The notes beneath the pieces were generated by a model. That model made no database searches, had not been told where the DNA came from, and was given only the letters and a program-made list of their open reading frames with translations. A stretch of DNA of 64,000 bases, taken from NCBI GenBank assembly GCA_041742395.1, contig JBGSIS010000005.1, positions 18,696 to 82,695 of the forward strand. The letters run 5' to 3'. A program made the translations under genes and the position numbers. This stretch comes from Candidatus Saccharimonadales bacterium. Its GTDB lineage: Bacteria; Patescibacteriota; Saccharimonadia; Saccharimonadales; JACQNP01. Positions 3,561 through 58,025 of the stretch are shown here, one piece after another (positions within the stretch are counted from its first letter, which is position 1; each line of letters starts with the position of its first letter).

Positions 3561-3578
3561 ACTTGCTACAATAACTAG

Positions 3579-5543
3579 GTGAGTAAGTTTAAAATAGTCA
3601 GTAATTATCAGCCATCTGGGGATCAACCCCAAGCAATAAAAGAATTGACTGAGAACATTTTTAAATCAGTCAGTGAGCAGACACTGCTTGGTGTTACAGG
3701 CTCAGGTAAAACTTTTACCATGGCTAACGTAATTCAGAATATTCAAAAACCAACTTTAGTAATTAGCCATAATAAGACTCTAGCAGCTCAGCTTTATGCT
3801 GAATTTAAAAAGTTCTTTCCAGATAATGCTGTTCATTATTTTGTTAGTTACTTTGATTACTATCAACCTGAAGCTTATATACCTCGTAGCGACACTTATA
3901 TAGAAAAAGATAGTCAAATTAACGAAGAAATAGACCGCATGAGACATGCAGCTACTGATTCTCTTTTGTCGAGAAAAGACGTAATTATAGTAGCAAGTGT
4001 TAGTTGTATTTATGGAATTGGTTCTGTGGATGACTATGATGCGATGTCAATTAAATTAAAAGTAGGCGAAAGACGTGTTAGGGATAAGCTAATAAGGCAG
4101 TTAACAGATATACAATATCAAAGAAATGATATAGATTTTCATAGAGGAACATTCAGAGTTAGGGGTGATGTACTTGATGTTTTCCCTGCAGGTGAAGAGC
4201 TAGCCTATAGGTTAGAGCTTTTTGGTGATGAGATTGACAGAGTTACTCAACTCGATCCACTAACCGGAGAAATCTTAAAAAATCTAGATAAAGTTACAAT
4301 ATACCCAAATAGTCACTATGTGACGCCCAATGAAAAAATTAAGTTTGCTCTATCAAAAATCGAAAAGGAACTTGAAATGAGGATTGGATTTTATAAAAAA
4401 CAAGATAAATATTTAGAAGCCCAAAGAATTCAACAACGAACTAGGTTTGATATTGAAATGTTAGAAGAAACCGGTTTTGTTAAAGGTATTGAAAACTATA
4501 GTAGATATCTTACAAACAGGGAACCTGGGGAACAGCCAGCTACCTTACTAGATTATTTTCCAGATGATTATTTGATGTTTATTGATGAATCCCACATGAC
4601 TATACCTCAGATTCGTGGAATGTATAACGGCGATAGAGCTAGAAAAGAAGTCTTAGTTGAGCATGGATTTAGGCTGCCAAGCGCCTTAGATAACAGGCCA
4701 CTTATGTTTACTGAATTTGAGAAACATATTAATAATGTTGTGTATGTTAGTGCTACTCCAGCTGCTTTCGAGCTTTCTCGAAGCCCAAAGCCTGCAGAGC
4801 AGGTTATTCGCCCAACGGGATTATTGGATCCTGTTATTGAAGTAAGACCGATTGATGGGCAAATTGATGACTTAATTGCTGAGATTAGATCTACGATTGC
4901 CAAACAACAGCGAATTTTAGTCACAACTCTTACAAAAAGAATGTCTGAAGATTTAACAGACTATCTAAAAGACTTAAATATCAAAGTTACCTATCTTCAT
5001 AGCGATGTGGATACTTTAGATAGAACAGATATACTAAGAGATCTTAGGTTAGGTATTTATGATGTAGTTGTGGGTATTAACTTATTAAGGGAAGGATTGG
5101 ATTTACCAGAAGTAAGTCTAGTCGCTATTTTGGATGCTGATAAAGAGGGTTTCCTTAGGAGTGAGCAGGCATTAATTCAGACTGTTGGAAGAGCTGCAAG
5201 GCACGTTGAAGGCCGAGTTATTATGTACGCTGACCGCATAACTGGAAGTATGGAACGTACAATTTACGAAACTAAGCGAAGACGAAAGATTCAAGAAAAA
5301 TATAATATAGATAATAAAGTAACTGCAACTGGTATAGCTAGTGAAGTATCAAAAGGACTTAGGCCTGACTTGCCGGAAGAAGCCAAGAGAGCAAAATTGG
5401 ACCTTAAGAAGATTCCAAAAGACGAATACAAACACCTCATAAAAGATCTAAATTCACAAATGGAAATAGCAGCAGCTAACTTAGAGTTTGAAAAAGCCGC
5501 CGAGCTAAGAGATATAATATCTGACATAACTAGTAAGATGTGA
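3579..5543 (+). CDS. uvrB: Excinuclease ABC subunit B
   Basis: [11 protein letters not shown], Walker [10 protein letters not shown], helicase motifs and the C-terminal UvrB/UvrC interaction helix ([10 protein letters not shown]) are all present. Size is 654 aa. GTG start. Confidence 0.95.
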
Positions 5544-5644: not shown

Positions 5645-6754
5645 TTATACTAATAGGTGGGCTTGATCAAATATTTTTTGTCCGTTCATTTTGTTAGGGT
5701 TGTCATTGTATTCTTGCAGAAATGATTTATTTCTAGCTATTAAATAATATAATGTTTCGGGATCCACAATAGTAAGGTGCGATCCGTCCAATATTGTTAT
5801 TCTTACGTTCTTATAATTTTTAAATAATTTCATCCATTCTGAAGGCATAGATGCAAAATCATCATTGAAGCATGTAATATGGATTATGCTTTCTTCGTCA
5901 ATAAATTTGGCTAATTCACCAGCTTCTCCGCTTAATAGTGTAGGTCCAATCGCGACTTGGCTGGCAATTGAAGTTGGATGCAAGTCAATCGTGGATGGGT
6001 AATGGAGGAGTCTACCTAACCCGACTTTACCTGCTAGTTTAACTACCGAAACAGGTTCGTGAATTATATGTCTTGAAAGATTCATAGCATCACTTAATTC
6101 AAATTTTCTAGGAAAACAAGGAGCTATTAGATCAGCAAAGAGTATCTCTTGATTGAATGAATTAGCTAGAGCCAGTATACCCATAGCTACCATTGCACTT
6201 CTAGACTCACCATAGAGTAGACGCTTATTTGGGTCTATGGAATATTTTAGTGAGCTTGATATTTCCTGAGAGAAACTTAAAACAGCTGCTGCTGATTTTG
6301 CTAAAGTTATATTATTAAGTCTAGGGATTTTAATTGATTCGTGATAGCTACCTTCGGCTCCAACGAAAATTGAAGGTACACCTTCATGAATGAATTTTCT
6401 TATCATGTGCTCGTAGTGGCCGCGACTAGTAGTTAACCATGCGCTAGTGTGAATATTTGGTATATCGGTTACTTGACGATTAGTTGGTATACCAATAACT
6501 GCATCGTAATTAAATCCAGCTACTGTAGTAAAACCTAATCTTTGAATATACCCATTAGGTACAGTAGTCTCTTCTAATACACTTGAAATAAAAGTAATAT
6601 TTGAGGATTCTTTTAATTTTTCAATTTCATCAAATAATGATTCTTGTTCTGCACTTAATAAGTCGTTATTTTTAATCAAACTTAATTTAGGATAGTGGGA
6701 TTCGTGGTTGGGTTTGATAAGTTGAGACATAATATTTTTTATGCTTAAAACCAT
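5645..6754 (-). CDS. Hypothetical protein, possibly an alpha/beta-hydrolase fold
   Basis: 369-aa ORF with a GESRSAMVAMG segment resembling a degenerate nucleophile elbow and a C-terminal LDGSH. There is no canonical GxSxG, so the family assignment is weak. Confidence 0.45.
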   Translation of the reverse strand: MVLSIKNIMSQLIKPNHESHYPKLSLIKNNDLLSAEQESLFDEIEKLKESSNITFISSVLEETTVPNGYIQRLGFTTVAGFNYDAVIGIPTNRQVTDIPNIHTSAWLTTSRGHYEHMIRKFIHEGVPSIFVGAEGSYHESIKIPRLNNITLAKSAAAVLSFSQEISSSLKYSIDPNKRLLYGESRSAMVAMGILALANSFNQEILFADLIAPCFPRKFELSDAMNLSRHIIHEPVSVVKLAGKVGLGRLLHYPSTIDLHPTSIASQVAIGPTLLSGEAGELAKFIDEESIIHITCFNDDFASMPSEWMKLFKNYKNVRITILDGSHLTIVDPETLYYLIARNKSFLQEYNDNPNKMNGQKIFDQAHLLV

Positions 6755-6795
6755 AGTATTACTTTTATTTAATTACTTCAAATTAAATAACGGTG

Positions 6796-6801
6796 TATAA
6801 T
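6796..6801 (+). promoter_or_regulatory. Candidate -10 (GTGTATAAT) 10 nt upstream of the gatC ATG; a possibly leaderless transcript
   Basis: TATAAT at 6796-6801, with a second TATAAT at 6805-6810 and the ATG at 6812. No SD can fit. Confidence 0.3.
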
Positions 6802-6811
6802 TACTATAATA

Positions 6812-7102
6812 ATGGCAAAATTAACAAGGGAAGAAATATTAAAATTGGCTAAATTAGCCAGAATTCATTTAACCGAAGAAGAGATAGATAGCTTCGGTAA
6901 TGACATTAGTATTATCTTGGAATATGTCGAGCAACTTAAAGATGTTGATTTAGGTAAACTGGCTCCAACATATCAGGTCACTGGTCTGACTAATGTTTTT
7001 CGTGAAGATGTCGCTGTTGATTATAATGAGACTCCCAAAGAATTGTTAAAGAATTCGCCCGATTCTGAAAATAACCAGATAAAAGTTAGGAGAATGTTGT
7101 AG
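6812..7102 (+). CDS. gatC: Asp-tRNA(Asn)/Glu-tRNA(Gln) amidotransferase subunit C
   Basis: 96 aa reading LTREEILKLAKLARIHLTEEEID...VTGLTNVFREDV. It overlaps the gatA start by 1 nt. Confidence 0.9.
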   Translation: MAKLTREEILKLAKLARIHLTEEEIDSFGNDISIILEYVEQLKDVDLGKLAPTYQVTGLTNVFREDVAVDYNETPKELLKNSPDSENNQIKVRRML

Positions 7103-8526
7103 TGTCTAACTGGGGCCCAATTAGTAAAATAGCTAGTGAAGTAAACAGCGGTAATACTAAAGCTGAACAGTTAGTTCTTGAATCACTCGAAAAAATCGAG
7201 AAACATAATGAATACAACGCAATAATATCTCTTGTTAGAGATAGGGCAATTGCCAGAGCTAAAGAAATTGATGAAAAAGTTAAAAACGGCCAAAGTGCTG
7301 GAAGATTAGCTGGAGTACCTTTCATAGCAAAAGATAATTTTTTAACTTTTGGCGGTGAAACCACGGCTGCAAGTAATATACTTAAAGGTTTTAATGCCCC
7401 TTACCAGGCCACGGCTGTCGTAAAACTAGAACAGGAAGGTGCTATTTGTGTAGCTAAAGCCAACTTAGACGCATTCGCTCACGGTTCTAGTACTGAAAAT
7501 AGCGATTTAATGACTACTAAAAACCCTCACGACATAAACAGAGTGCCAGGTGGCTCGTCTGGCGGTTCTGCAGCTGCAGTGGTTTTAGGAATGGCTCCTT
7601 TTGCTCTAGGAACAGATACTGGTGGTTCTATACGACTACCTGCGTCCTTTACGGGATCAGTTGGATTAAAACCTACTTATGGAACCGTATCTAGATCTGG
7701 AGTTGTTGCTATGGCTAGTAGCACTGATGTAATAGGACCAATTACAAATTCCGTAGAAGATGCTGCTGTAATTTTAGATGTAATTGCTGGTCAAGATTCA
7801 CTTGACGGAACTTCAATACCAAGATCAAGTAAAAGTTTTCTTATTGACGATGTTAGTTTAAAGGGTCAAAAAGTTGGATTAGTTAAAGAATATATTGGAG
7901 AAGGTGTTGACGACAAGGTTAAGGAATCTGTGCTAGCCTCAATAGAAGAAATGAAGAAAGCAGGAGTTCAAGTAAAAGAAGTAAGTCTGCCATCTATTTA
8001 TCTGTCATTAGCTTGCTACTATATAATAATGCCCGCAGAAGTAAGTAGTAACTTGAGCAGATACGATGGTCAAAGATACGGCTTCTCGTCTAATAAAGCA
8101 AAAATTTTAGAAGAAAGTTACAACTGGTCCAGAAGTGAAGGTTTTGGGCGTGAAGCAAAACGTAGAATTATGATTGGAACTTACGTGCTAAGCAGTGGTT
8201 ATTACGATGACTATTACCTAAAAGCTATGCAATTAAGAACTGAATTAATTAATGAGTTCAATAAGGTATTTGAGGATGTTGATTACCTTGTTGGCCCTAC
8301 AGCACCTACCGTAGCATTTGAAGTAGGAAAAAAGACTAACAATCCTCTGGAGATGTATTTAGCGGATATTATGACAGTAGCACCGAGTTTAGTTGGAGTA
8401 CCAGCAATAAGCATACCAATTAAGTCTCTTGACAAAATGCCTATAGGGTTGCAAATAATCGCTCCACAAGGAAAAGACAAAAATCTTTTGAGTTTATCCA
8501 ATAAAGTCATGGAGATTACAAAATGA
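7102..8526 (+). CDS. gatA: Asp-tRNA(Asn)/Glu-tRNA(Gln) amidotransferase subunit A (amidase family)
   Basis: Amidase signature GGSSGGSAAAV and GVPFIAKDNF are present. Size is 474 aa. GTG start. Confidence 0.95.
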   Translation: MSNWGPISKIASEVNSGNTKAEQLVLESLEKIEKHNEYNAIISLVRDRAIARAKEIDEKVKNGQSAGRLAGVPFIAKDNFLTFGGETTAASNILKGFNAPYQATAVVKLEQEGAICVAKANLDAFAHGSSTENSDLMTTKNPHDINRVPGGSSGGSAAAVVLGMAPFALGTDTGGSIRLPASFTGSVGLKPTYGTVSRSGVVAMASSTDVIGPITNSVEDAAVILDVIAGQDSLDGTSIPRSSKSFLIDDVSLKGQKVGLVKEYIGEGVDDKVKESVLASIEEMKKAGVQVKEVSLPSIYLSLACYYIIMPAEVSSNLSRYDGQRYGFSSNKAKILEESYNWSRSEGFGREAKRRIMIGTYVLSSGYYDDYYLKAMQLRTELINEFNKVFEDVDYLVGPTAPTVAFEVGKKTNNPLEMYLADIMTVAPSLVGVPAISIPIKSLDKMPIGLQIIAPQGKDKNLLSLSNKVMEITK

Positions 8527-10391: not shown

Positions 10392-11282
10392 ATGAATGAT
10401 AAAAAAGTACGAAAAGCCGTAATCGCTGCAGCAGGGTTTGGTACTAGGTTTTTACCTCAAACAAAAGCAATGCCTAAGGAGATGCTGCCTGTTGTCGATA
10501 AACCAATAATTCAATATATTGTAGAGCAATTAGTTGAAGCGGGAATAGAAGACATTGTTATTGTTACTGGTTATCATAAGCGATCTATTGAAGACCATTT
10601 TGACCAAATGAGCGCGGAACTTAGGATAAATTTAAAAAGCGGTGGCAAGATTGATCTTTTAGAAGACACTAAAAAAATTTCAGATTTGGCTAATTTTGCT
10701 TATGTTAGACAAAAAGGACCATACGGTAGTGCAACTCCGATTGAAAATGTTCAACATCTGATAGGGGATGAGCCATTTATTTACACTTTTGCAGACGATA
10801 TAATAACCGCATCTCCAAACCGTTTTATTCAAATGATTGAACATTACGAAAAGTACAATACAACCATATTACCGTGTATTTCACTTACTGAAGATAGCCA
10901 GTTTGATAGATATGGAGTAATTGATGGCTCTCCAGTTAATGATGAGGTTATGAGAATTAATGCTTTAGTTGAAAAGCCCGGAAAACTGCATTCACCTTCA
11001 GATTTTGGTAGCGTCGGTGGATATTTACTCACTCCTGAAGTATTTAAGTACTTGGAACCCGGAAGAAATAGAATGAGTGGTGATGATGAATTCTATCTTA
11101 CAACTTACGTTTTAGAACCTATGATTGAAGATGGACACGAAATGTTCGCTGCCTTACTAAAAGACAGTAAGTACTATGACACTGGAAATAAGTTGGAATA
11201 TCTAAAAACAGTTGTCGACTTCGCCCTTGATCGCCCAGATATTAAAGATGATTTCATTAAATATCTTAAGACAAAAGTCTAA
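10392..11282 (+). CDS. galU: UTP--glucose-1-phosphate uridylyltransferase
   Basis: KAVIAAAGFGTRFLPQTKAMPKEMLPVVDKPIIQY is present. Size is 296 aa. RBS AAGGA. Confidence 0.9.
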   Translation: MNDKKVRKAVIAAAGFGTRFLPQTKAMPKEMLPVVDKPIIQYIVEQLVEAGIEDIVIVTGYHKRSIEDHFDQMSAELRINLKSGGKIDLLEDTKKISDLANFAYVRQKGPYGSATPIENVQHLIGDEPFIYTFADDIITASPNRFIQMIEHYEKYNTTILPCISLTEDSQFDRYGVIDGSPVNDEVMRINALVEKPGKLHSPSDFGSVGGYLLTPEVFKYLEPGRNRMSGDDEFYLTTYVLEPMIEDGHEMFAALLKDSKYYDTGNKLEYLKTVVDFALDRPDIKDDFIKYLKTKV

Positions 11283-11304
11283 AATTACTAAAATAGCTAT
11301 AATA

Positions 11305-11313
11305 TGGTATAAT
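11305..11313 (+). promoter_or_regulatory. Extended -10 (TGgTATAAT) 7 nt upstream of the ATG at 11321; a candidate leaderless promoter
   Basis: TGGTATAAT at 11305-11313, with another TATAAT at 11298-11303. Confidence 0.35.
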
Positions 11314-11320
11314 TAGTAAT

Positions 11321-11584
11321 ATGAATGAAGCAGCTGAAATTTTGGTAGTTTTCTTGTCAGTAGCATTGGCAATATTTTTAATACTTGGCATAGTAGTCCT
11401 AAGTATGACCATTAAGTTACTTAAGAGCCTGCAAAGAATTTCAGAAAAAGCTGAAGAAATGTCTGAGATAATCGAAGAATCAGTTAGGTCATTTACTAAT
11501 ATGAAGGCAATTTCATCTCTCATAACTTTGTTTAATAAGTTTAGTACTAATAAAAGGAGCGGACGATATGGGAAAAAATACTAA
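11321..11584 (+). CDS. Hypothetical small membrane protein
   Basis: 87 aa with an N-terminal TM followed by a charged helix. It overlaps the next ORF by 17 nt. Confidence 0.4.
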   Translation: MNEAAEILVVFLSVALAIFLILGIVVLSMTIKLLKSLQRISEKAEEMSEIIEESVRSFTNMKAISSLITLFNKFSTNKRSGRYGKKY

Positions 11585-47100: not shown

Positions 47101-47729
47101 TCTCAGAACGAACAACAGTTGGTGCCATGTATATGATTAAGCTTAACCATATGATTGCTGATAAAATTCATGCTCGTTCTACTGGTCCTTACACAATGGT
47201 CACCCAACAGCCTCTCGGTGGAAAAGCTCAGAACGGTGGTCAGAGATTTGGAGAGATGGAAGTTTGGGCTCTAGAAGCATACGGGGCAGCAAACACTCTT
47301 CAGGAAATGCTTACTATCAAGTCAGATGATGTTTATGGTAGGTCAAAAGCATACGAGTCAATTATCAAACAAACAGAAATTGTTGGACCTAAAGTACCAG
47401 AAAGCTTTAATGTTTTAGTTAAAGAGTTACAAGGACTTGGCTTAAAGGTTGATTTGGTCTCAAACGATCAAGTTATAGATGCAGAAGAAGTACTAGCAGA
47501 AAACATTAAGGATGAAGCTGCACACCTTTCAGACGTTGCAGTACCAGCTCCGTTAGCTTCGGAAGTTGATGTAACCGAGGATGCAGTATTAGGTGAGTTT
47601 GATGTTATCGATCTAAGCGATACGAACACACAGGTTTCAACTATTGATGAGCAAGAAATTGCCGAGATGGTGGCCGAAGAAGATATAACAGTTGCAATTG
47701 ATGAACAGGAAGGAAAGGAGATAGCTTAA
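44139..47729 (+). CDS. rpoB: DNA-directed RNA polymerase beta subunit
   Basis: All conserved RpoB regions are present (rifampicin cluster region, GDKLGGRHGNKGV). I chose the ATG at 44139 with GGGAG upstream; the ORF track starts at GTG 44121. Confidence 0.95.
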   Translation: MAKSIAKASTLKKSKRKYFSENNQLIDLPNLVDHQNKSFQWFVDEGLGELLAEISPIDDYTSTKLSLRFKDYKFENPKITEDEARENNVSYEAPLKAVVELTNKVTGEVKDQEIYLGDYPWMTNRGTFVINGAERVVVSQLIRSAGVFFTSEIQGTKKAYGAKVIPGRGAWLEFETATSGAMFVKIDRKRKIAVTTLLKALGMTESQIKEAFKHVNQGAVNYIESTLDKDPSKGTNEALIEVYRRLRPGDLATVDNARSLIENMFYNYKRFDFSRVGRYKINKRLDLDIPNTIDNRVMRLEDLKAIVAEIIRLNNTQEPADDIDSLANRRVKLVGELVQRQFRIGLLRMERNTKDRMSMCEIETVTPAQLINARPIVAAVREFFASSQLSQFMDQINPLSELAHKRRLSSMGPGGLSRERAGFEVRDAHATHYGRICAVETPEGANIGLVLNLASYATINDYGFVETPYRKVINAVTSKEAVGHIASVNLEDENGKVIVKAGSKISSDDAKKLAAVKAQKTWPVRAKVTNDVIYLDASEEESAVIASASEKYDKDGYFESERVSARSYLKAGEVDSDDVTHIDASNKQIIGSSAGLIPFIEKNYVYRSLMGSNQQRQAVPLINPRSPIVGTGLEEVVARNSGQLVVAEDDGEVTKATGDEVVVKYKTGSVSYKPQHFIRSNEGSSINQKVVVESGDKVKSGDPIIEGMSVSDGELALGRDLRVAFMPWAGYNFEDAIIVSRKLVEDDDLTSVHIVDFMVEVRETKLGPEIVTRDIPNVSEDALRHLDEEGIVTIGAEVHPGDILVGKITPKGEQELSSEERLLRAIFGEKAKEVRDTSQRMPNGKHGKVVGVKIFSKENGHDLKAGVIMQIQVFVAQMRKISVGDKLGGRHGNKGVIARVLPIEDMPFTEDGEPVDIILNPLGVPSRMNIGQLFETHLGMAAHMLGMKVASPSFDGVEIKKIQELLKEAGLPEDGKQQLFDGRTGEPFSERTTVGAMYMIKLNHMIADKIHARSTGPYTMVTQQPLGGKAQNGGQRFGEMEVWALEAYGAANTLQEMLTIKSDDVYGRSKAYESIIKQTEIVGPKVPESFNVLVKELQGLGLKVDLVSNDQVIDAEEVLAENIKDEAAHLSDVAVPAPLASEVDVTEDAVLGEFDVIDLSDTNTQVSTIDEQEIAEMVAEEDITVAIDEQEGKEIA

Positions 47730-50700
47730 TGAGACTATATTCACAAGGAACCGATATTGCCGACTTCGATGCTGTTAGATTAGCCGTAGCAAGTGCAGAT
47801 GACATAATGGACTGGAGTTATGGTGAAGTCACCAAGCCAGAAACCATTAACTATCGAACACAAAAACCAGAAAGAGATGGATTATTTTGTGAGAGAATTT
47901 TTGGCCCAGTTAAAGACATAAACCCTCACGATGCAAAGTATAAGGGAGTTCGATCTCGAGAAGCTGCTGTAGATAAGAATGGTGAATTAGTTACAAAATC
48001 TATTGTTAGACGAGAAAGAATGGCTCATATTACTCTTGCCACTCCAGTTGCACATATATGGTTCTTGAGAGGAACTCCTTCGGCGGTTGGCCTACTATTA
48101 GGTATGACAGTAAAAAGTCTTGAAAGAGTTGCTTATTTCGCTAGCTACATTGTCAAGAGTGTTGATACTGAAAAACGTAATCAGCTCTTCACTGATAAAG
48201 AAGCAGAATATAACGCTGCTCAGGAAGCAATAAAAGCACGATACGAAGCTGAAGCTAAGAACGAAGATGCTAACGTAAAGGCTCTAGCAGAAATGCAAAC
48301 AAAAGAACTTAGTGATATAGCTGAGCAATTTGAAGAATATAAAGCTCAGGTAGATTCATTAGTTAAGCTAAATCTGATTACCGAATCAGAATATCGAAAC
48401 CTTCCAGATGATTTACGTTCCATAGTTGAAGTTGGTATGGGCGGCTCTTCAATTAAAGAGCTACTTGATGGAATAGATCTTGACAAGCTCATAGAAGATT
48501 TAACAGCTGAATCAGAAGAAGTAAAAGGTCAAAGAAAGAAAAAAATTACTAAACGACTTCGACTCCTAGAAAGCATGCAAAGAGCTGGAATTAAACCTAG
48601 TAGCATGTGTCTCTCGGTATTGCCTGTAATCCCTCCAGATCTAAGACCAATGGTTCAGCTAACCGGTGGTAGGTTTGCAACTTCTGACCTAAACGATCTA
48701 TACAGACGCGTAATAAATAGAAATAATCGACTTAAGAAATTAATCGAATTAAACGCCCCGGAAGTAATTCGACGAAACGAACAAAGAATGCTTCAGGAAG
48801 CTGTCGATGCCTTGATTGATAACAATAGTGCAAGATCCGGAAGAGCTGTTGCTGCAACTGGCCAAAGACGAAGACTTAAAAGTCTTAGCGATATGCTAAA
48901 AGGTAAACAAGGTAGATTCCGACAAAACCTTTTGGGTAAGAGAGTCGACTATTCAGGTAGATCAGTAATTGTTGCTGGTCCAGACCTAAAGATTAGTCAA
49001 TGTGGTCTACCTAAAATGATGGCTTTAGAGTTATTTAAACCTTTTGTAATAGGAATACTAATTGCCAATGACTATGCGCACAATATCCGTTCAGCTACAA
49101 GAATGATTGAGACTGGCGAGACAGTTGTTTGGGATGCTCTAGACGATGCTATAAAAGACAAGTACGTACTTCTTAACCGTGCACCTAGCTTGCACCGTTT
49201 AAGTATTCAATCATTTCAACCTGTTTTGATTGAAGGCAAGGCAATTCAACTTCATCCATTAGTATGTAAGGGATTCAATGCTGACTTTGACGGAGATCAG
49301 ATGGCTGTTCACTTGCCACTTTCAGATAAAGCACAACAAGAAGCAAGAGAAATCATGGCAAGTAACAAGAACTTACTTAAACCGGCTGATGGCTCACCGA
49401 TTCTTCATATTGAACAAGATATTGTTCTAGGTTGTTACTATCTTACCTATGATAGAAATGATGTTCCTAAAGAAGTTACATCATTTTCTGGTGTCGACGA
49501 AGCATTAATGGCTCTAGATGCAAACGAAATAATACTACAAACAAAAGTAAGAATTCCGTTTAGGAATGAAATACGTGAAACTACCCTTGGTAGAATTCTG
49601 TTCAATGAAATCTTCCCAGAAGACTTTCCTTTCCAAGATGAAGCAATGACTAAGAAGCGACTAAACGCTGTACTAGCTTTAGCATATCAACTTTACGGTC
49701 AGGACGTTACGGCTGATCTAGCAGACAACTTGAAAGACCTTGGATTTAAGTATGCAACCAAATCAGGCCTATCAATGGGCATGGATGACTTTAGTGACTT
49801 TAAACAGTTGAATGACATTCTTAAGAATGGTGAGAAATCTGCAGCAGAAATCAGTGATCAATTTGATCAAGGATTTATTACAGATGAGGAAAGACACCGC
49901 TTAACAGTAGAAAACTGGATGAAGACTGACTCTAAAGTACTAGAAGATTTGTCAGAGCAGTTCTCGAGAGAAAATACCACAATGGCTATAGCAGTTACTT
50001 CTGGAGCAAGAGGTAACATTGGACAGATGAAGCAGTCAGTAGGTATGCTTGGTGTAACTACTGATGCTACAGGTCGAGCAATCGAACTACCAATTCGTTC
50101 TAACTATAAGAGCGGTCTTAATCCTCTAGAATATTTTACGGCAACACGTGGAGCACGAAAAGGTATGATTGATACAGCTCTTAAAACAGCTGACTCAGGA
50201 TATTTGACAAGAAGACTAGTTGATGTGAGTCAGGATGTATTTACTATTGATGACGACAGCGAAGACCCAGGGTTCCCTGTCTTCAGGTCGGATTCTGAGG
50301 AGATTGGTGTTTCTTATGCTTCTAGGTTAGTAGGAAGATATACCGCAGCTAAAGTTGGTAAATACATCAAGTCCAGAGAATTAATCGACCACAAAGTTGC
50401 TGAAGCGATAGATAAAGATAGCTCAGTTGATGGTGTAAGAATAATGAGTGCTTTGAGTTGTGCAAATGTCAGGGGTGTATCCACGAAATCTTATGGAGTA
50501 GATCCTGCAACCGGACAAGTTGTTGCAGAATATCATCCAATCGGAGTAATTGCCGCACAAAGTATAGGTGAGCCGGGAACACAGCTTACTCTTAGAACTT
50601 TCCATAGTGGTGGTTCCGCTGTAGCAGATGATATCACACAGGGTCTTCCTCGTGTTGAAGAGCTATTCGAGGTCAGAACTCCTAAGGGTCAAGCATTTCT

Positions 50701-51553
50701 ATCGGATATAGAGGGTGTGGTTTCCACTTGGGAAGAAAGTGATCACTATGTTGTTCAAGTTAGTATCGAAGGTGAATCAAAAGTAAAATTAGCAATTGGC
50801 GACAGAAAAGTTCACGTTGCTAATGGTAGTGATGTAGCTATCGGTGATGTACTAGCTTCGGGAGAAAAAGGAGATAATCCACTAATTTCACCTGTAGCTG
50901 GCAAAGCTGAAGTAACTAAAAAGAATATTGCTATTGCTCCTGCTGGAAAAAGCGAAGTAAGATACGAAATACCAGGATACAAACAGATCCTAGTTAAAGA
51001 AGGTGAAAAAGTAGTTCCAGGACAAAGACTTACAAACGGTTCTATCAATTTGCATGAGCTGATGTTGTTGCAAGGAGTTGAAGCTACACAACGGTATATA
51101 ATGAATGAAATTCTTAGAATATTTGCATCACAAGGACAGAATATTGCTGACAAGCATCTTGAAATTATCGTTAGACAAATGTTTAGTCGAGTTCAAGTTG
51201 AGGAAGCTGGCGATACGGAGTTTGTTACGGGTGACATCGTTAGTAAATTAGCTGTAGTTGAAGCTAACGAAAAACTAACTAATGAAGGTAAAGAACCTGC
51301 TAAATATACTCAGTTACTTCTTGGTATTACTAAGGCAAGCTTATCTACTGATTCATTCTTAAGTGCAGCTAGCTTCCAAGATACTACTAGAGTACTTATT
51401 GCTGCTGCGACCAGTGGAAAAGTTGACAACCTGTATGGACTTAAAGAGAATGTTATTCTTGGAAGAAGAATCCCAGTAGGAACCGGCAGGAGAGACGTAA
51501 GCGAAGTAATTCAGGAAGAATTTGTCGAAGCAGAAGAAGAAGTTTTAGTATAA
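47729..51553 (+). CDS. rpoC: DNA-directed RNA polymerase beta' subunit
   Basis: [12 protein letters not shown], the zinc-binding N-terminus and the trigger loop are present. Its ATG overlaps the rpoB stop (TAATG). Size is 1274 aa. Confidence 0.95.
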
Positions 51554-51557
51554 TAAG

Positions 51558-51586
51558 TTGCTATTTATAGTACATTTTGTTAAAAT
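51558..51586 (+). promoter_or_regulatory. Sigma70-like promoter for the str operon (-35 TTGCTA, 17 nt, -10 TAAAAT)
   Basis: TTGCTA at 51558-51563 and TAAAAT at 51581-51586. A leader of about 80 nt with a long-range GTAATCT/AGATTAC pairing and SD AAAGGAG precedes rpsL. Confidence 0.5.
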
Positions 51587-51666
51587 ACTCAAGTTAAATT
51601 TAAGTAATCTGAGCCAAGTAACCGGCATGAGCTTGATGCAGTAGATTACATCTTAAAGGAGAATTA

Positions 51667-52080
51667 ATGCCAACAATTAATCAATTGGTGCGAAAGCCAA
51701 GAACTAAGGTGACTACCAAAAGTAAGTCACCAGCTATGCAACGTGTAGTAAATAACTTAAAAACAAAACACTACGAAAAGCCCGCTCCTTTTAAAAGAGG
51801 AGTATGCGTAAAAGTAACAACCAAAACACCAAAGAAGCCAAACTCTGCTCTTCGAAAAGTTGCTCGTGTACGACTAAGTAATGGATATGAAGTATGGGCA
51901 TATATTGGTGGCGAAGGACATAATCTTCAGGAACACGCCGTTGTTCTTGTTCGTGGTGGTCGAGTTAAAGATTTACCTGGTGTAAGGTATCATATTGTAC
52001 GCGGCTCGCTTGACCTACAGGGTGTACAAAATCGTAAACAACGCCGATCGAAATACGGCGCTAAGAAGGAGGATAAATAA
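51667..52080 (+). CDS. rpsL: 30S ribosomal protein S12 with an N-terminal region insertion of about 13 aa
   Basis: [10 protein letters not shown]...[13 protein letters not shown]...[19 protein letters not shown] is present. Extra residues ([18 protein letters not shown]) sit between SPAMQ and RGVC. Confidence 0.95.
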
Positions 52081-52556
52081 TGCCTCGCAAAAAGACTAAA
52101 TCACTTGTACGTGAAGTTCAACCCGACCGAATGTATAACAGTATTCAGGTATCAAAGGTTATTAACAGAGTAATGTTAAATGGCAAAAAGCAGATAGCTG
52201 AGAGACTTGTTTATAACGGAATGCAGAAAGCAGCTGATAAAGTAAAAGTTCAAAATCCTCTAGAAGTATTTGAACAGGCTCTTGGAAATATTAGACCAAA
52301 TGTAGAAACTCGCTCTAGAAGAGTTGGTGGCGCTAACTATCAAATTCCTTTTGAAGTACGTGGTCAGAGACAGCAACATCTAACTACTATGTGGTTTGTT
52401 CAGTGTGCACGTTCTCGAAAAGGTATGAGCATGGAAGACCGTATTGCATTAGAGCTAGTTGACGCTTTTAACAATACTGGTACAGCCGTGAAGAAGAAAG
52501 AAGACACACACAAGATGGCCGAAGCTAACCGAGCATTCGCTCATTTTGCTAGGTAA
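52080..52556 (+). CDS. rpsG: 30S ribosomal protein S7
   Basis: 158 aa reading PDRMYNS...NGKKQIAERLVY...ARSRKG. Its ATG overlaps the rpsL stop. Confidence 0.95.
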   Translation: MPRKKTKSLVREVQPDRMYNSIQVSKVINRVMLNGKKQIAERLVYNGMQKAADKVKVQNPLEVFEQALGNIRPNVETRSRRVGGANYQIPFEVRGQRQQHLTTMWFVQCARSRKGMSMEDRIALELVDAFNNTGTAVKKKEDTHKMAEANRAFAHFAR

Positions 52557-52560
52557 TAAA

Positions 52561-52884
52561 ATGACAGTCAATACATTGATTTCTGTTGATTGTGATCCCG
52601 AATGTAGTTATAAGAACGCGGTTGAGAAACTTGAAAATAGTAGAACTAAAGCAATAGAAGAAATTAATGACGATACTTATGAGCGGACTGGAAAACTGGC
52701 GCAAACTACCAGGGCAGGACAAGTAGCAATTGAAGGTGTAAGATTTGACTACACCGGTCTAGATACTTTGTCTGTAATAGGTTCGACATGCTCCAGAGCT
52801 TGTGCGATCGAAAGATTTTGGGACCAGCATGGCAATTTTGAATCAGAAGTAGACGCTGAAATTAATATATTAAAGGACAACTAA
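52561..52884 (+). CDS. Hypothetical Cys-rich small protein (107 aa) embedded between rpsG and fusA
   Basis: ATG 4 nt after the rpsG TAA; its stop abuts the fusA ATG. It carries CDPEC and CSRAC (two CxxxC pairs). No homolog recognised. Confidence 0.45.
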   Translation: MTVNTLISVDCDPECSYKNAVEKLENSRTKAIEEINDDTYERTGKLAQTTRAGQVAIEGVRFDYTGLDTLSVIGSTCSRACAIERFWDQHGNFESEVDAEINILKDN

Positions 52885-54972
52885 ATGGCAGACAAGAAAA
52901 CGGAAATGAAGAACATTAGAAACATTGGTATCATTGCGCATATCGATGCAGGTAAGACAACAACAACTGAAGGTATTCTTTACCGAACAGGACTAAAGCA
53001 CAAAATTGGTGCTGTACATGAAGGTGAGACTACTACCGATTGGATGGCTCAAGAGCGAGAACGTGGAATTACAATCGTATCGGCTGCTGTAACTTGTTAC
53101 TGGAAAGATCATCAAATTAACATTATTGACACACCTGGTCACATTGATTTCACCGTTGAAGTGGAACGAAGTCTTCGTGTACTTGACGGTGCTGTTGTTG
53201 TGTTTGACGGTAAAATGGGCGTAGAAAGTCAGTCAGAAACTGTTTGGCGTCAAGCTGACAAATATAATGTTCCACGTATCTGTTTCATTAATAAAATCAA
53301 TCAAACTGGTGGTGATTTTTATAAATCACTAGACTCAATCCACAATCGCTTAAATAAGCGTGCTTTCCCAATTCATCTACCTATTGGCTTTGAACAGGCA
53401 ATTAATGGAATAGTTGATTTAGTTTCAATGAAAGCCTTTACATACAATGAGTTTACCGATAAAGAACTAGTAGAATCTGAAATACCTGCAGATATGCTAG
53501 ATCAAGTTAAGAAATCTCGAAGTCTACTGATTGAAAACGCTGTAGCTGAAGATGAAGAAATGCTAGAAAAGTATTTTGAAGTTGGCGAAGATGGTCTAAG
53601 CGAAGAAGAGATAATTAAGGCAGTCAGATCTGCAGTACTTTCTGGTAATTTCTTCGCTGTAACTGGCGGTGACGGACGTGGCGTGATTGTAGAAAAAGTA
53701 TTGGATCTTGTTAATGACTTATTGCCAAGTCCTCTAGATCGTGGATCCACTTGGGGAACTCATCCAAAAACTGGTGATGAAGTAGAAAGAAAACCAGCAG
53801 AAACTGAGCCATTTTCTGGATTAGCATTTAAAATTGCGACTGATCCGTTCGTAGGTAAACTTGCTTACTTTAGGGTTTATTCTGGTAAGCTACAATCCGG
53901 ATCGTATATACTTAATAGCTCGACAGGCGAAAAAGAACGAGTTGGACGTATTGTTAGGATGCAGGCTGATAAGCGTGAAGAAGTACCTGAAGTCGGAGCA
54001 GGAGATATCGCTGCTATAGTTGGGCTAAAGAGTACTACTACAGGAAACACTCTTTGTGATCAAACGAATCCGATTGTACTAGAAAGTATCACTTTCCCTG
54101 AACCTCCTGTCTCAATTGCAATTGAACCAAAGACCAAGAGTGACCAAGAAAAAATGTCAATAGCACTGCAACGATTAGCAGAAGAAGATCCAACATTCAG
54201 AATTAATGTTGATGACGAAACTGGTCAGACAATTATTCGTGGTATGGGTGAGATTCATCTAGAAATCCTTATTGATAGAATGAAACGAGAATTTAAGGTA
54301 GAGGCCAATATTGGTGCACCTCAAGTTGCCTACCGTGAAACAATTAGAAAAGATGACGTCGAAGCTGAGGGTAAATTTATTCGTCAATCGGGCGGTCGTG
54401 GACAATACGGACATGTCTGGGTAAGAATTTCTCAGAACGAACAAGGTAAAGGCTACGAGTTTATTAACCGTATTAAGGGAGGTGTAGTTCCTAGTGAATA
54501 CATTAAGCCAGTAGATGAAGGAATAAAAGAAGCTATGAACAATGGTGTCGTGGCTGGTTACCCTGTGGTTGATATAAAAGTTGAACTTTATGATGGAAGT
54601 TACCATGATGTTGACTCAAGTGAAATGGCATTCAAGGCTGCAGGATCAATTGGATTTAAGGAAGCTATGCGTAAAGCTAAGCCAGTACTCCTAGAACCAG
54701 TAATGAAAGTAGTCGTAGTAACTCCAGAAGATTTCATGGGTGATGTAATCGGTGATCTAAACTCTAAACGAGGTCGTATCGAAAATATGGAAGATCTTCA
54801 AGCTAGCGTTAAAGAAATAACAGGATTCGTACCACTAGGTGAAATGTTTGGCTATACAACTAACCTTCGTTCTATGACTCAAGGTCGAGCTAGCTCTAGC
54901 ATGGAACTTGACCATTACGCCGATGTACCACCAAATGTCGCTGAAGCAATAGTAGCTAAAAATTCTAAATAA
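52885..54972 (+). CDS. fusA: Elongation factor G
   Basis: G-domain motifs AHIDAGKTT and DTPGH and domains II-V are present. Size is 695 aa. Confidence 0.95.
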   Translation: MADKKTEMKNIRNIGIIAHIDAGKTTTTEGILYRTGLKHKIGAVHEGETTTDWMAQERERGITIVSAAVTCYWKDHQINIIDTPGHIDFTVEVERSLRVLDGAVVVFDGKMGVESQSETVWRQADKYNVPRICFINKINQTGGDFYKSLDSIHNRLNKRAFPIHLPIGFEQAINGIVDLVSMKAFTYNEFTDKELVESEIPADMLDQVKKSRSLLIENAVAEDEEMLEKYFEVGEDGLSEEEIIKAVRSAVLSGNFFAVTGGDGRGVIVEKVLDLVNDLLPSPLDRGSTWGTHPKTGDEVERKPAETEPFSGLAFKIATDPFVGKLAYFRVYSGKLQSGSYILNSSTGEKERVGRIVRMQADKREEVPEVGAGDIAAIVGLKSTTTGNTLCDQTNPIVLESITFPEPPVSIAIEPKTKSDQEKMSIALQRLAEEDPTFRINVDDETGQTIIRGMGEIHLEILIDRMKREFKVEANIGAPQVAYRETIRKDDVEAEGKFIRQSGGRGQYGHVWVRISQNEQGKGYEFINRIKGGVVPSEYIKPVDEGIKEAMNNGVVAGYPVVDIKVELYDGSYHDVDSSEMAFKAAGSIGFKEAMRKAKPVLLEPVMKVVVVTPEDFMGDVIGDLNSKRGRIENMEDLQASVKEITGFVPLGEMFGYTTNLRSMTQGRASSSMELDHYADVPPNVAEAIVAKNSK

Positions 54973-54983
54973 GGAAACACGTT

Positions 54984-55193
54984 ATGGAACATAGAAGAAT
55001 TAGGATAGCACCCCTACCAGACACTCGCGAATTCAACTTAGAACCTATAAGGTCGGTTGGCAGTAAGATTGGTTCTTTAGTCTTAAGACCAATTATGGAA
55101 ATTAGAGATATTGCCCATGAATTGAGTATTGGTTTAGGTAATCCAGTCATGAAGCCAGAGGACGTAAAACCCAAATCAGAAGATACTAGATAA
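54984..55193 (+). CDS. Possible small ORF (69 aa) in the fusA-tuf spacer; the coding status is uncertain
   Basis: GGAAA lies 7 nt before the ATG. An antisense ORF of equal length overlaps it (54965..55174). No similarity recognised. Confidence 0.25.
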   Translation: MEHRRIRIAPLPDTREFNLEPIRSVGSKIGSLVLRPIMEIRDIAHELSIGLGNPVMKPEDVKPKSEDTR

Positions 55194-55202
55194 TAAATCT
55201 CT

Positions 55203-55231
55203 TTACAAACAGGGGATATTTAGATAATATT
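55203..55231 (+). promoter_or_regulatory. Sigma70-like promoter for tuf (-35 TTTACA, 17 nt, -10 TAATAT)
   Basis: TTTACA at 55203-55208 and TAATAT at 55226-55231. A leader of about 80 nt with SD AGGAG precedes the tuf ATG. Confidence 0.5.
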
Positions 55232-55310
55232 TACAAGTAACTCGTGTGAGTGTTTATTTATGCTTGCACTGTTTAATACAATTAAGAAATAATTAGGAGT
55301 ACTAACAACA

Positions 55311-56492
55311 ATGGCAGATTTTGATCGAAGTAAGCCTCATGTAAACGTAGGTACTATGGGACACGTTGACCATGGTAAAACAACACTAACAGCCGCTATT
55401 ACAGCAGTTCTTGCAAAAAAACTGCCAAGCGATGTAAACAAATCAATTGCGTATGACCAAATTGATAACGCACCTGAAGAAAAAGCCCGTGGTATAACCA
55501 TTGCAACTTCTCATCAAGAGTATGAATCAGAAAAACGGCACTATGCACACGTAGATATGCCAGGTCACGCCGACTATGTAAAAAACATGATTACCGGTGC
55601 TGCACAAATCGATGGTGCTATCTTGGTTGTTTCTGCTGCTGATGGCCCAATGCCACAAACACGTGAACACGTATTGCTTGCAAAACAAGTGGGAGTACCA
55701 AGCATCTTAGTTTTTATGAACAAGATGGATCTTGCAGACCCAGAGCTAGTAGAACTTGTAGAGATGGACATTCGTGAATTACTTGCTAAATATGAATTTG
55801 ACGAAGATTGTCCAATCATCAAAGGATCAGCAACAAAGGCTCTTGAAGGCAGCGCTGCTGACGAAGATGCCATCATGAAACTCGTTAAGGCATTGGATGA
55901 TTACGTTCCAGAACCGAAGCGCGACACTGACAAGCCGTTCTTAATGGCAGTCGAGGACGTATTCTCAATTAAGGGCCGTGGAACAGTTGCAACTGGTCGT
56001 ATTGAACAAGGTATTGTCAAGCTTAACGACGAAGTTGAAATTGTTGGTGTTAGAGACACTCAGAAGTCAGTTATTACTGGTATTGAGATGTTCAAGAAGA
56101 ATCTAGATCAAGGTCAAGCAGGTGATAATGCTGGAATCTTGTTACGAGGTATTGAACGTGAGCAAATTGAAAGAGGTCAAGTTCTTTGTAAGCCTGGATC
56201 AATCACTCCACATACAGAGTTTGATGCTGAAGTTTATGTTTTGACTAAAGAAGAAGGTGGACGACATACTCCATTCTTCAAGGGTTATAAGCCACAATTT
56301 TACTTCCGAACAACTGATGTTACTGGTGAAGTGGAATTACCAGCTGATAAAGAAATGGTAATGCCGGGTGATACTATAACTTTTAAAGTTAAGTTACTAG
56401 CCCCAATTGCTATGGAACAAGGTCTACGCTTTGCTATTCGTGAAGGTGGACGAACTGTTGGTGCAGGTGTTGTTACTAAGATTACTAAATAG
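55311..56492 (+). CDS. tuf: Elongation factor Tu
   Basis: [21 protein letters not shown] and NKMD are present. Size is 393 aa. Confidence 0.97.
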
Positions 56493-56510
56493 TTAAACTA
56501 GTAATTCTGA

Positions 56511-56540
56511 AAAAGAGTCGGGAGAAATCTCGACTCTTTT
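56511..56540 (+). terminator. Rho-independent (bidirectional-type) terminator after tuf
   Basis: Perfect 10-bp arms AAAAGAGTCG/CGACTCTTTT with a 10-nt loop. Confidence 0.7.
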
Positions 56541-56550
56541 CATATCTTTG

Positions 56551-56578
56551 TTTACATGGTAAACTATGTTAGTAAAAT
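56551..56578 (+). promoter_or_regulatory. Sigma70-like promoter for the S10 operon (-35 TTTACA, 16 nt, -10 TAAAAT)
   Basis: TTTACA at 56551-56556 and TAAAAT at 56573-56578. A leader of about 85 nt containing a GTGATG...CATCAC long-range pairing and SD AAAGGAG precedes rpsJ. Confidence 0.5.
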
Positions 56579-56662
56579 AATTGTGATGACTAAAAGTCTT
56601 TGATGATGTTCTATATAACGCAGCAATGATGTTACATCACTAGAATAAAGGAGAATTATTCT

Positions 56663-57013
56663 ATGGCAGAAGCCAAAAAAACTGAATCAACAAAACCAAC
56701 TGCCTCAACTAAGCAGAGAATAAGAATACGTTTAAAGGCATATGATCATAAGGTTATCGATCAGTCTGCAAAGCAAATTGTAGATACTGCTCTTAGAACA
56801 GGTGCAACTATTGCTGGACCAATACCTCTACCTACAAAAAAGACTTTGTATACTGTAGTTAAAAGCCCTCATGTTTACAAAAAAGGACGTGAACAGTTCG
56901 AAATGCGCGTTCATAAACGTTTAATTGACGTGCTTGATCCAACTCCAAAGACTATTGATTCTCTTATGAACCTTAGTTTACCTGCTGGCTGCGATGCTGA
57001 AATTAAGATGTAA
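56663..57013 (+). CDS. rpsJ: 30S ribosomal protein S10 with an N-terminal extension of about 18 aa
   Basis: [43 protein letters not shown] is present. Confidence 0.95.
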
Positions 57014-57021
57014 TTAATAAT

Positions 57022-57729
57022 ATGTCTACAGAAGGTTTTAATAGTTCAGAACCAGATAGACCAATTTTGACCGACGATGTCTTGCATGAGATTGATTGTA
57101 GGGCGATTTTCGCTACACAGAATTTGGCTGAAACACTAATTATATATGGTGGCATAGAGCCACTAGTAGAAAGATATACCCCATTCAAGTTACCAGAGAG
57201 AATACATCGAGATATATACAGTATATTACGATTGCCTGATGATGATCGCTCAAATATTAACTATGATGACGATAAGAGAGTATTAAGAGATGGTCTAATT
57301 GCCGGATTTATTTTGGGCAGGAGACTGATCAAGAGGACTCAATACCCCGGCATGACAACATATCAACACGGTGTACTTCAAGACTTAAGACGAGCGACTT
57401 CACGTCCTGGCATTGATGTAGACGATTATATTTATCCCGGGAATAGATTTGCGGATAAAATTCTTTCAAAGCTGGAAAACTCGGAAATCCACGACCTATC
57501 ATATCCATGTGGAAACGATGTATTTAGAAAAGAAACATTCATGAGGGCTTCAAGTTATTTAGGTGGATCAGCAATGAGCTATTTAGTAGCAAAGTTAACC
57601 AGAAATATTGATTTTGAAACAGAAGCATATTTTTCTGCTAATGCGAACAAGCTCGCAAGAGATATTAAAGAAGAGAGTGCTGGCCGAAAAAAGCTAACGC
57701 CACTTACACACCTTATTCGTGGAAAATAA
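57022..57729 (+). CDS. Hypothetical protein (235 aa) inserted between rpsJ and rplC
   Basis: Clean ORF starting 8 nt after the rpsJ stop, with no SD and no recognisable motif. Confidence 0.5.
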   Translation: MSTEGFNSSEPDRPILTDDVLHEIDCRAIFATQNLAETLIIYGGIEPLVERYTPFKLPERIHRDIYSILRLPDDDRSNINYDDDKRVLRDGLIAGFILGRRLIKRTQYPGMTTYQHGVLQDLRRATSRPGIDVDDYIYPGNRFADKILSKLENSEIHDLSYPCGNDVFRKETFMRASSYLGGSAMSYLVAKLTRNIDFETEAYFSANANKLARDIKEESAGRKKLTPLTHLIRGK

Positions 57730-57738: not shown

Positions 57739-57746
57739 TTATGCTA

Positions 57747-58025
57747 ATGGCTAAAAAACAAAAAATAAGTAAAAAAACAGAGTCTGACGGCGCCTACTTT
57801 TTAAAAATAGTACTATATTTAATTCTTGGTTCTCAATGGTTAAGACTAGTAGACCCAGAATTAACAACCCAGATACCAATACCGTTTGGCTTTATGCTTG
57901 GAATACTATTCGCCTCTCATGATCATTTCAAGATTGATCGTAAAATTGAGTATGCTGTACTTACTATTGGAGCATTCGTAGGTTTTTGGCTACAAACAGG
58001 TTTCTATATTCAATTATTAAAGTAG
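57747..58025 (+). CDS. Hypothetical small membrane protein (about 92 aa; the alternative ATG is at 57741)
   Basis: A Lys-rich N-terminus followed by two or three predicted TM helices. Confidence 0.4.
   Translation: MAKKQKISKKTESDGAYFLKIVLYLILGSQWLRLVDPELTTQIPIPFGFMLGILFASHDHFKIDRKIEYAVLTIGAFVGFWLQTGFYIQLLK

Follow-up and report, generated by a model that had tools for sequence, protein, structure and literature searches.

A four-cysteine gene of an orphan family between rpsG and fusA in the str operon of Saccharibacteria

The rpsG-fusA junction

The order rpsL-rpsG-fusA-tuf is among the most conserved of bacterial gene orders. In the window, by which we mean the whole 64,000-nucleotide stretch of DNA analysed here (36.7% GC), this order holds an additional 107-codon open reading frame, and the genes, all on the forward strand, run rpoC, rpsL, rpsG, the additional ORF (hereafter X; 52561-52884), fusA, a 69-codon ORF, tuf and rpsJ onward (Table 1). 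Homologues of the S7 protein of the window share 84-100% identity with it, and some of them, at 84-89% identity, are named Candidatus Saccharibacteria by NCBI, which places the window in a Saccharibacteria genome. The placement of X is unusual because the gene order is so conserved, and yet a gene under selection is wedged at the junction of S7 and EF-G, where it carries the ribosome binding site of EF-G.

Table 1. Features of the window around X, with the basis of each assignment
Feature	Position	Strand	Basis or remark
rpoC	47729-51553	+	ORF list
Promoter-like site 5' of rpsL, TTGCTA-17-TAAAAT with TG	51558..51586	+	Consensus scan only
rpsL, S12, 137 aa	51667..52080	+	ORF list; PF00164 on orthologues at related loci
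rpsG, S7, 158 aa	52080..52556	+	ORF list; stop TAA 52554-52556
Spacer between S7 stop and X start, TAAA, 4 nt	52557..52560	+	Sequence; 1-4 nt in six other loci
X, 107 aa, acidic (pI 4.5), four Cys, predicted all-helical, orphan family	52561..52884	+	
First CX3C motif, C11-D-P-E-C15 (CDPEC)	52591..52605	+	Residues 11-15
Second CX3C motif, C77-S-R-A-C81 (CSRAC)	52789..52803	+	Residues 77-81
fusA Shine-Dalgarno, AAGGA	52873..52877	+	Within the Lys105-Asp106 codons of X, 7 nt 5' of the fusA ATG
fusA, EF-G, 695 aa	52885..54972	+	ORF list; Pfam domains on orthologue

The first-pass annotation of this DNA had described an ORF beginning 4 nt past the S7 stop, with its TAA against the ATG of fusA, and these coordinates are exact. 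X opens with ATG at 52561 and closes with TAA at 52882-52884 after 107 sense codons, and the stop abuts the fusA ATG at 52885 (TAAATG). The AGG at 52551-52553 is both the last sense codon of S7 and a Shine-Dalgarno (SD)-like element lying 7 nt upstream of the X start. An in-frame TTG at 52546 would yield a product of 112 aa; the ATG is preferred because the relatives start at its position (ATG in the related locus L001, GTG in L003). A consensus scan of the forward strand between the end of the S7 coding region and fusA gave no promoter-like or terminator-like site, and the promoter-like site upstream of rpsL is, judged by its sequence, a possible promoter of the str operon.

Ten independent contexts of X were read, and in nine of them X lies between rpsG and fusA (the window, L001/L002, L003/L004, L005-L007, L008, L009/L010, L011, L012 and L017/L018). 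Wherever the flanking DNA is long enough, the family member is found within a str operon of the Saccharibacteria type. The rpsG-fusA slot can hold two genes, as in L012, where a 137-aa ORF (3392-3805) without Cys and without a Pfam match lies between rpsG and X. In the tenth context, L019 (1-985), X stands alone after a 120-nt spacer, preceded by a GGGAGA SD-like element and adjoined by neither rpsG nor fusA. This is the only copy found outside the str operon, and L019 is a single 985-nt, low-coverage contig.

In each of the seven str operon loci whose junctions were read, X starts 1-4 nt past the S7 stop and the last S7 codons contain an AGG- or GG-containing SD-like stretch upstream of that start, while the end of X ranges from a 1-nt overlap with the fusA ATG to 8 nt before it. 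The SD of fusA (AAGGA, AAGGT or AGGA) lies within the C-terminal Leu-Lys-(Asp/Gly) codons of X or in the short spacer. Because these codons encode the fusA SD, the C-terminal LKG/LKD motif may owe some of its conservation to constraint at the nucleotide level. Tight junctions on both sides had been taken as a sign that X is translated with the operon, and they recur in every str operon copy examined (seven loci); going by these junctions, X is very probably translationally coupled within the operon. X is thus very probably made by a translational relay, in which its start is coupled to the S7 stop with the SD-like stretch in the last S7 codons, and in which the last codons of X, or the short spacer, in turn supply the SD of EF-G.

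Coding evidence and the X family

At the base composition of the window, 107 stop-free codons would arise by chance with P of about 2e-4, and the other five frames of the same stretch contain 3-17 stops each. A word-indexed protein search yielded two relatives, P0002 (79% identity) and P0003 (65% identity), each encoded on a contig of its own, with rpsG before the gene and fusA after it. Conservation of the reading frame in relatives had been set as a test of the gene, and at these levels of identity the frame is kept, with zero internal indels in the DNA alignment of X with L001 and L003. The differences fall mainly in third positions (14/14/45 at codon positions 1/2/3 between the window and L001, and 28/20/61 between the window and L003). 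The dN/dS of X against L001 is 0.12, at a dS of about 1.2 (Nei-Gojobori), compared with 0.004-0.013 for the flanking S7, EF-G, EF-Tu and S10 genes of the same two loci and about 0.3 for L008 against L009, a second pair of X genes within the family. The base composition of X is native, its GC and GC3 (0.30) being like those of the neighbouring genes.

The opposite reading, in which the stretch is an S7-fusA spacer that holds a regulatory RNA structure, or an ORF that is open by chance, is extremely improbable. Structures in the mRNA that bind ribosomal proteins do exist in the str operon of other bacteria. Here, however, Rfam gave zero matches up to E = 1 across 51000-57200, and the folding energy of the X RNA showed no extra stability relative to shuffled sequences (z = +0.89), so that the structured RNA set as a second test of the gene does not appear. 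The third-position substitution bias and low dN/dS, the length of the open frame, and the distant protein homologues, which keep the invariant Cys down to 26% identity, argue in the same direction. As far as sequence analysis reaches, the reading without a gene is refuted, and X is almost certainly a real protein-coding gene.

A HMMER pass with a three-sequence profile against 1.84 billion representative proteins (E <= 1e-3) returned 18 proteins, 17 of which are 104-127 aa long and align with X from end to end. The 848-aa P0019 (E = 3e-5 with the three-sequence profile) was rejected as a member, its score being a summed low-complexity or repeat effect of six weak repeat stretches. In the resulting 19-sequence alignment C11, C15, G66, C77 and C81 never vary, conservation is at least 90% at D12 and P13, and the consensus motifs read VDCDPxCKWK and CxRACAIER; apart from G66, no side chain other than the four Cys is strictly conserved. 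Outside its own clade, identity to the X of the window is 18-38%. The members are acidic without exception (pI 4.3-5.8), and the number of Cys is exactly four in 14 of the 19. X is rich in Cys (3.7%, compared with 0.51% for the long ORFs of the window), and its product has neither a signal peptide nor a hydrophobic stretch.

The ten clusters looked up hold 1-4 member sequences each, among about 15 billion proteins. The family proteins come from environmental assemblies and carry either no name or that of 'hypothetical protein', and no paralogue of X was found in the window or in any of the fetched loci. The alignment of the whole family is too variable for a locus scan, and a narrower alignment, covering part of the family, found one genome locus and one metagenome locus only. 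Taken from these sequences, the family is a rare, small orphan known only from uncultured bacteria.

That X had no recognisable family was already the impression at first reading, and it holds. Searches with X gave nothing below E = 0.05 in Pfam and NCBIfam and no match in PHROGs or PADLOC, and all 19 members gave zero Pfam matches at E <= 1 to the zf-Tim10_DDP, zinc-ribbon and Whib models. Ole_e_6 and CfbB were rejected as identities, being chance-level matches (E >= 0.05; Pfam, NCBIfam, PHROGs, PADLOC). Among PDB sequences no match to the 19-sequence profile was better than E = 0.35, and Foldseek found nothing below E = 1 for the X model against PDB and BFVD. In tblastn searches with X there were zero matches in 50,697 phage records and a single chance-level match (E = 0.7) in 72,556 plasmid records. 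We found no relevant publication on gene X, on Cys-rich small proteins or on Saccharibacteria ribosome structures. The X family counts as new, with neither detectable sequence relatives outside itself nor a fold match among solved structures.

Predicted fold and cysteine site

AlphaFold2 gave an unusable model from three sequences (pLDDT 44), and the model used here was built from 19 (pLDDT 77.6, pTM 0.65). It is all helical, with helices at residues 16-43, 51-63, 67-76, 82-90 and 96-106. DSSP marks residues 10 and 78 only as E (strand or bridge), beside C11 and C77, and from these marks the two CX3C motifs are taken to lie side by side in the model, in which the N-terminal Cys motif has a pLDDT of just 41-69. 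The model suggests, with reasonable likelihood, a five-helix bundle in which one tetra-thiolate site pins the N-terminal C-D-P-x-C turn to the junction of helix 3 and helix 4 (C-x-R-A-C).

CDPEC and CSRAC had been picked out at the outset as two pairs that could form one small metal site. Both are found, at residues 11-15 and 77-81, the second running into the conserved ACAIER stretch; their four Cys are invariant in the family and in the model probably form a single metal or redox site. The most likely form of the predicted site is a structural Zn(Cys)4, the alternatives being a redox switch of two disulfides and an Fe-S cluster. A zinc-ribbon-like fold, which had also been put up for testing, is contradicted by the model: zinc ribbons have two CXXC knuckles on beta-hairpins, whereas X is predicted to be all alpha-helical, with one isolated bridge and with motifs of the CX3C kind.

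If the Cys4 site were to hold an Fe-S cluster or to cycle between dithiol and disulfide, X would be a redox or oxygen sensor, which we consider unlikely. Four invariant Cys that are the sole strictly conserved side chains besides G66 would suit this role, and small all-helical four-Cys Fe-S proteins are known in the WhiB-like proteins. However, X has a Cys pattern other than the C-Xn-C-X2-C-X5-C of WhiB and no match to the Pfam Whib model, it has no likeness to any Fe-S family in Pfam or NCBIfam, and its CX3C...CX3C spacing is, to our knowledge, not a known Fe-S signature. Twin CX3C motifs lend the redox version some support, as in small Tim proteins the four Cys bind one Zn or form two disulfides, and the motifs switch between Zn-bound or reduced and two-disulfide forms (PMC3759932). 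The present data discriminate no metal from another.

Like X, the small Tims (zf-Tim10_DDP) are small and helical, with four Cys in two CX3C motifs as their only strictly conserved side chains, and in X the twin CX3C (C11x3C15 and C77x3C81) is invariant in 19 sequences. The motifs are nevertheless 61 residues apart in X and roughly 11-16 residues apart in small Tims, and the helix-loop-helix of the latter contrasts with the five helices of the X model. Small Tims are also mitochondrial, X being bacterial and presumably cytoplasmic, and X fails their Pfam profile (no match, 19 members, E <= 1). The likeness is an analogy of motif only.

Distribution and possible function

Four other Saccharibacteria were sampled via their S7 proteins (L013, L014, L015 and L016). 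In L013 and L014 rpsG is followed directly by fusA, across spacers of 49 nt and 12 nt with their own SD. The EF-G of these two is 92% and 90% identical to that of the window, against only 83-85% in the X-bearing L005, L008 and L011, and lineages keeping rpsG, X and fusA in this order reach down to an EF-G identity of 83-86%. In a neighbour-joining tree of EF-G, L013 and L014 are sister to the pair of the window and L001, X-bearing and X-less lineages are interleaved, and the more distant branches carry X. This pattern is most simply explained if the gene is old and has been lost or replaced at least two or three times. The first-pass annotation had looked to a gene conserved in this slot; frame and Cys are indeed kept in relatives, but the next-closest sampled genomes, L013 and L014, are without X.

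The slot is occupied by other ORFs in L015 (3985-4299; about 103-115 aa, four Cys) and L016 (3982-4323; 113 aa, six Cys). These were considered as very distant homologues of X but show no detectable relationship to it, hhalign giving a probability below 3% for both against the X family. The L015 ORF probably starts with a GTG 4 nt past the S7 stop. Its sequence includes CxxxCPG, and its end, ...LLMKDNQQ, is loosely like X.

X also evolves rapidly. Between the window and L001 the dN is 0.141 for X and 0.007 for fusA, and overall the dN of X is 13-20 times that of EF-G; L005 and L017 share 93% identity in EF-G and 34% in X. Neither S7 nor S12 has an alignment column that distinguishes the genomes with X from those without it. 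In EF-G, 2 of 231 variable columns track the presence of X, a count that 10% of random 6/4 partitions reach.

The ORFs at other junctions of the str and S10 operons vary from genome to genome, and most of them defy annotation. Between fusA and tuf there are ORFs of 69 aa (window, L001), 88 aa (L011), 157 aa (L017), 238 aa (L014) and 293 aa (L005), and a transposase in L016; between tuf and rpsJ, ORFs of 107 aa (L005), 147 aa (L011) and 57, 88 and 174 aa (L017); and between rpsL and rpsG, one of 75 aa (L015). The rpsJ-rplC junction likewise has different ORFs in different genomes. Pfam gave zero matches for seven junction ORFs, and in several of the junction ORFs Cys numbers four to six or accounts for 4-6% of the residues.

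We tentatively rank first, above a partner in translation, the reading that X is a passenger or accessory. It would be a dispensable, fast-evolving accessory protein for which the str operon provides a strong, growth-rate-linked expression platform, neither a constituent nor an obligate partner of the ribosome or EF-G, and would count among the many small ORFs, several rich in Cys, that are lineage-specific occupants of the str and S10 junctions in Saccharibacteria. It is ranked first because X has been lost in close relatives (L013, L014) and replaced by unrelated ORFs in L015 and L016, because a stand-alone copy occurs (L019), because X diverges 13-20 times faster than its supposed partners, no residue of which co-varies with it beyond chance, and because the same operons carry many other passengers. 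The acidic pI and the 1-4 sequences per cluster count on the same side. Against it, nine of the ten contexts keep the exact slot and the tight coupling while X drifts to 26-37% identity, and a functional tie to S7 or EF-G would equally yield such constancy; the ACAIER stretch and G66 could form a partner interface; and the stand-alone copy comes from one 985-nt, low-coverage contig. 'Passenger' moreover names the source of expression, not the job of the protein. The explanation as a whole, a real and coupled Cys4 gene that would use the str operon as a passenger or accessory, is one that we hold with evenly divided confidence.

The first-pass annotation had proposed a translation or ribosome accessory factor. 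Such a lineage-specific accessory would be stabilised by its metal, bind EF-G, S7/S12 or the 30S subunit, be synthesised alongside them through translational coupling, and tune or protect elongation; we regard it as possible, though the less probable choice. In its favour, nine of ten contexts place X in the same slot with tight junctions, at EF-G identities of only 83-86%, and selection acts on the product, beyond the act of translation alone. The acidic helical protein of the model would suit protein-protein binding, and accessories that confer resistance or protection are typically patchy in spread and fast to evolve. However, close relatives have lost X without replacement, one copy lies alone outside the operon, and the dN of X is many times that of supposed partners that are nearly invariant. 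The number of EF-G columns tracking X is one that random partitions also reach, there is no likeness in sequence or fold to FusB or any translation factor, and vertical inheritance in a rigid operon explains the position in the slot. Beyond position and coupling, nothing observed supports this role. The role of a translation factor is possible for X and that interpretation is partly supported overall, whereas the observation of the gene itself is confirmed.

One version of the accessory, by analogy with FusB-type proteins, would be an EF-G-directed protection or regulation protein. FusB is about twice as long as X. FusB and FusC are accessory and patchy, have a four-Cys zinc site and act on EF-G, and FusB does so by binding it, as a C4-zinc protein (PMC3352095). 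FusB offers the best precedent for the possible action of a small Cys4 protein made together with EF-G. It has two domains, a four-helix bundle and an alpha/beta domain with a CXXC-X23-CX5C treble clef, and it is plasmid-encoded (PMC3352095), whereas X sits in the str operon. Two domains and a C4 treble clef are not what X has, its 107 aa being modelled as a single helical domain, and no likeness to FusB was found in Pfam, in the PDB sequence profile search or by Foldseek against PDB.

The Cys4 zinc-ribbon ribosomal proteins (bL31, bL32, bL33, bL36, uS14 and the C+ forms of bS18) are, like X, small four-Cys proteins encoded with the translation apparatus. They are basic, bind rRNA, carry CXXC knuckles on beta-hairpins and are near-universal, whereas X is acidic, helical, of the CX3C type and dispensable. 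Ribosomal proteins are basic, slowly evolving and present across a lineage, and X departs from all three (pI 4.3-5.8, a dN 13-20 times the EF-G value, no copy in L013 or L014). Saccharibacteria are usually without bL32, bL9 and uL30 (PMC9297842). X would be a poor stand-in for any of these because it is acidic and dispensable. A non-ribosomal gene in a ribosomal protein operon is known from Bacillus, where ybxF, encoding an L7Ae-like protein, lies upstream of rpsL. Like X, ybxF is a lineage-restricted gene for a small protein co-transcribed with rpsL-rpsG-fusA-tuf; unlike X, which is without a family and coupled on both sides in the S7/EF-G junction, it belongs to a known RNA-binding family and stands 5' of rpsL. 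X was also considered as a redox partner of EF-G, an idea dropped because the EF-G of the window has Asp at what we take to be, from an alignment by eye, the position of the oxidation-sensitive Cys of E. coli EF-G.

A more specific proposal, which we consider improbable, would have X, in Saccharibacteria specifically, act with EF-G or the 30S subunit under a metal or redox switch, for instance as a protein of target protection or regulation synthesised along with EF-G, with the junctions hosting a rotating set of small Cys-rich translation modulators in these reduced epibionts. That set would take in X, the unrelated ORFs that fill the slot in L015 and L016, and those rich in Cys at the rpsL-rpsG, fusA-tuf and tuf-rpsJ junctions. 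A recent mobile or horizontal insertion (a phage, plasmid, toxin-antitoxin or defence gene) would account for the patchy distribution, and a transposase does adjoin fusA in L016, but the native GC and GC3, the phage and plasmid searches, the empty PHROGs and PADLOC results, the absence of repeats and integrase here, and an identity of X that falls in step with lineage divergence, as in old vertical descent, make this origin highly unlikely.

Should X bind to EF-G or the ribosome, it would represent a new accessory of translation specific to its lineage. As a passenger, the reading we prefer, it would show how reduced, promoter-poor genomes may place new small genes in ribosomal protein operons. 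Either way it offers a clean, small target for learning about the uncultured, host-dependent Saccharibacteria, although its importance is limited, the family being rare, dispensable and fast evolving.

Several of the junction ORFs merit description in their own right. Four or five Cys are found in small ORFs at L015 3281-3508 (rpsL-rpsG), L011 8389-8655 (fusA-tuf) and L017 10632-10898 (tuf-rpsJ), where Cys makes up 4.5-5.7% of residues against a background of 0.5%. A relationship between the L011 fusA-tuf ORF and the L015 ORF of the rpsG-fusA slot, which share a C...CxxxCPG...C pattern, was considered and rejected, as BLASTP yields no alignment. The 69-aa ORF of the window (54984-55193, +) is without Cys and fills most of the fusA-tuf gap. 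It has no match in Pfam or NCBIfam, occupies the same place in L001 and L002 with a dN/dS of 0.16 against L001, and is unrelated to the ORFs of 88-293 aa found between fusA and tuf in other Saccharibacteria.

Directly after rpsJ the window has a 235-aa ORF (57022-57729, +), also present in L001, from which it diverges rapidly (dN 0.28, dS saturated), and without a Pfam match. Upstream of rplC lies a 94-aa ORF (window 57741-58025, +; L001 11185-11463; L011 11401-11670), likewise without a Pfam match, whose hydrophobic stretches suggest a small membrane protein; conservation is strong, with a dN/dS of 0.03 against L001 and 51% identity to an 89-aa ORF 3' of rpsJ in L011. In L016 (CP060231.1, a complete 876-kb genome) a transposase/integrase with an rve domain (6548-7477) lies directly 3' of fusA where tuf would be expected, and in L017 a 174-aa HD_4-domain protein (10916-11440) lies with two small ORFs between tuf and rpsJ. 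The rpsJ product itself is listed as 116 aa in the window (56663-57013) and 151 aa in L011 (10407-10862), with an apparent N-terminal extension of variable length.
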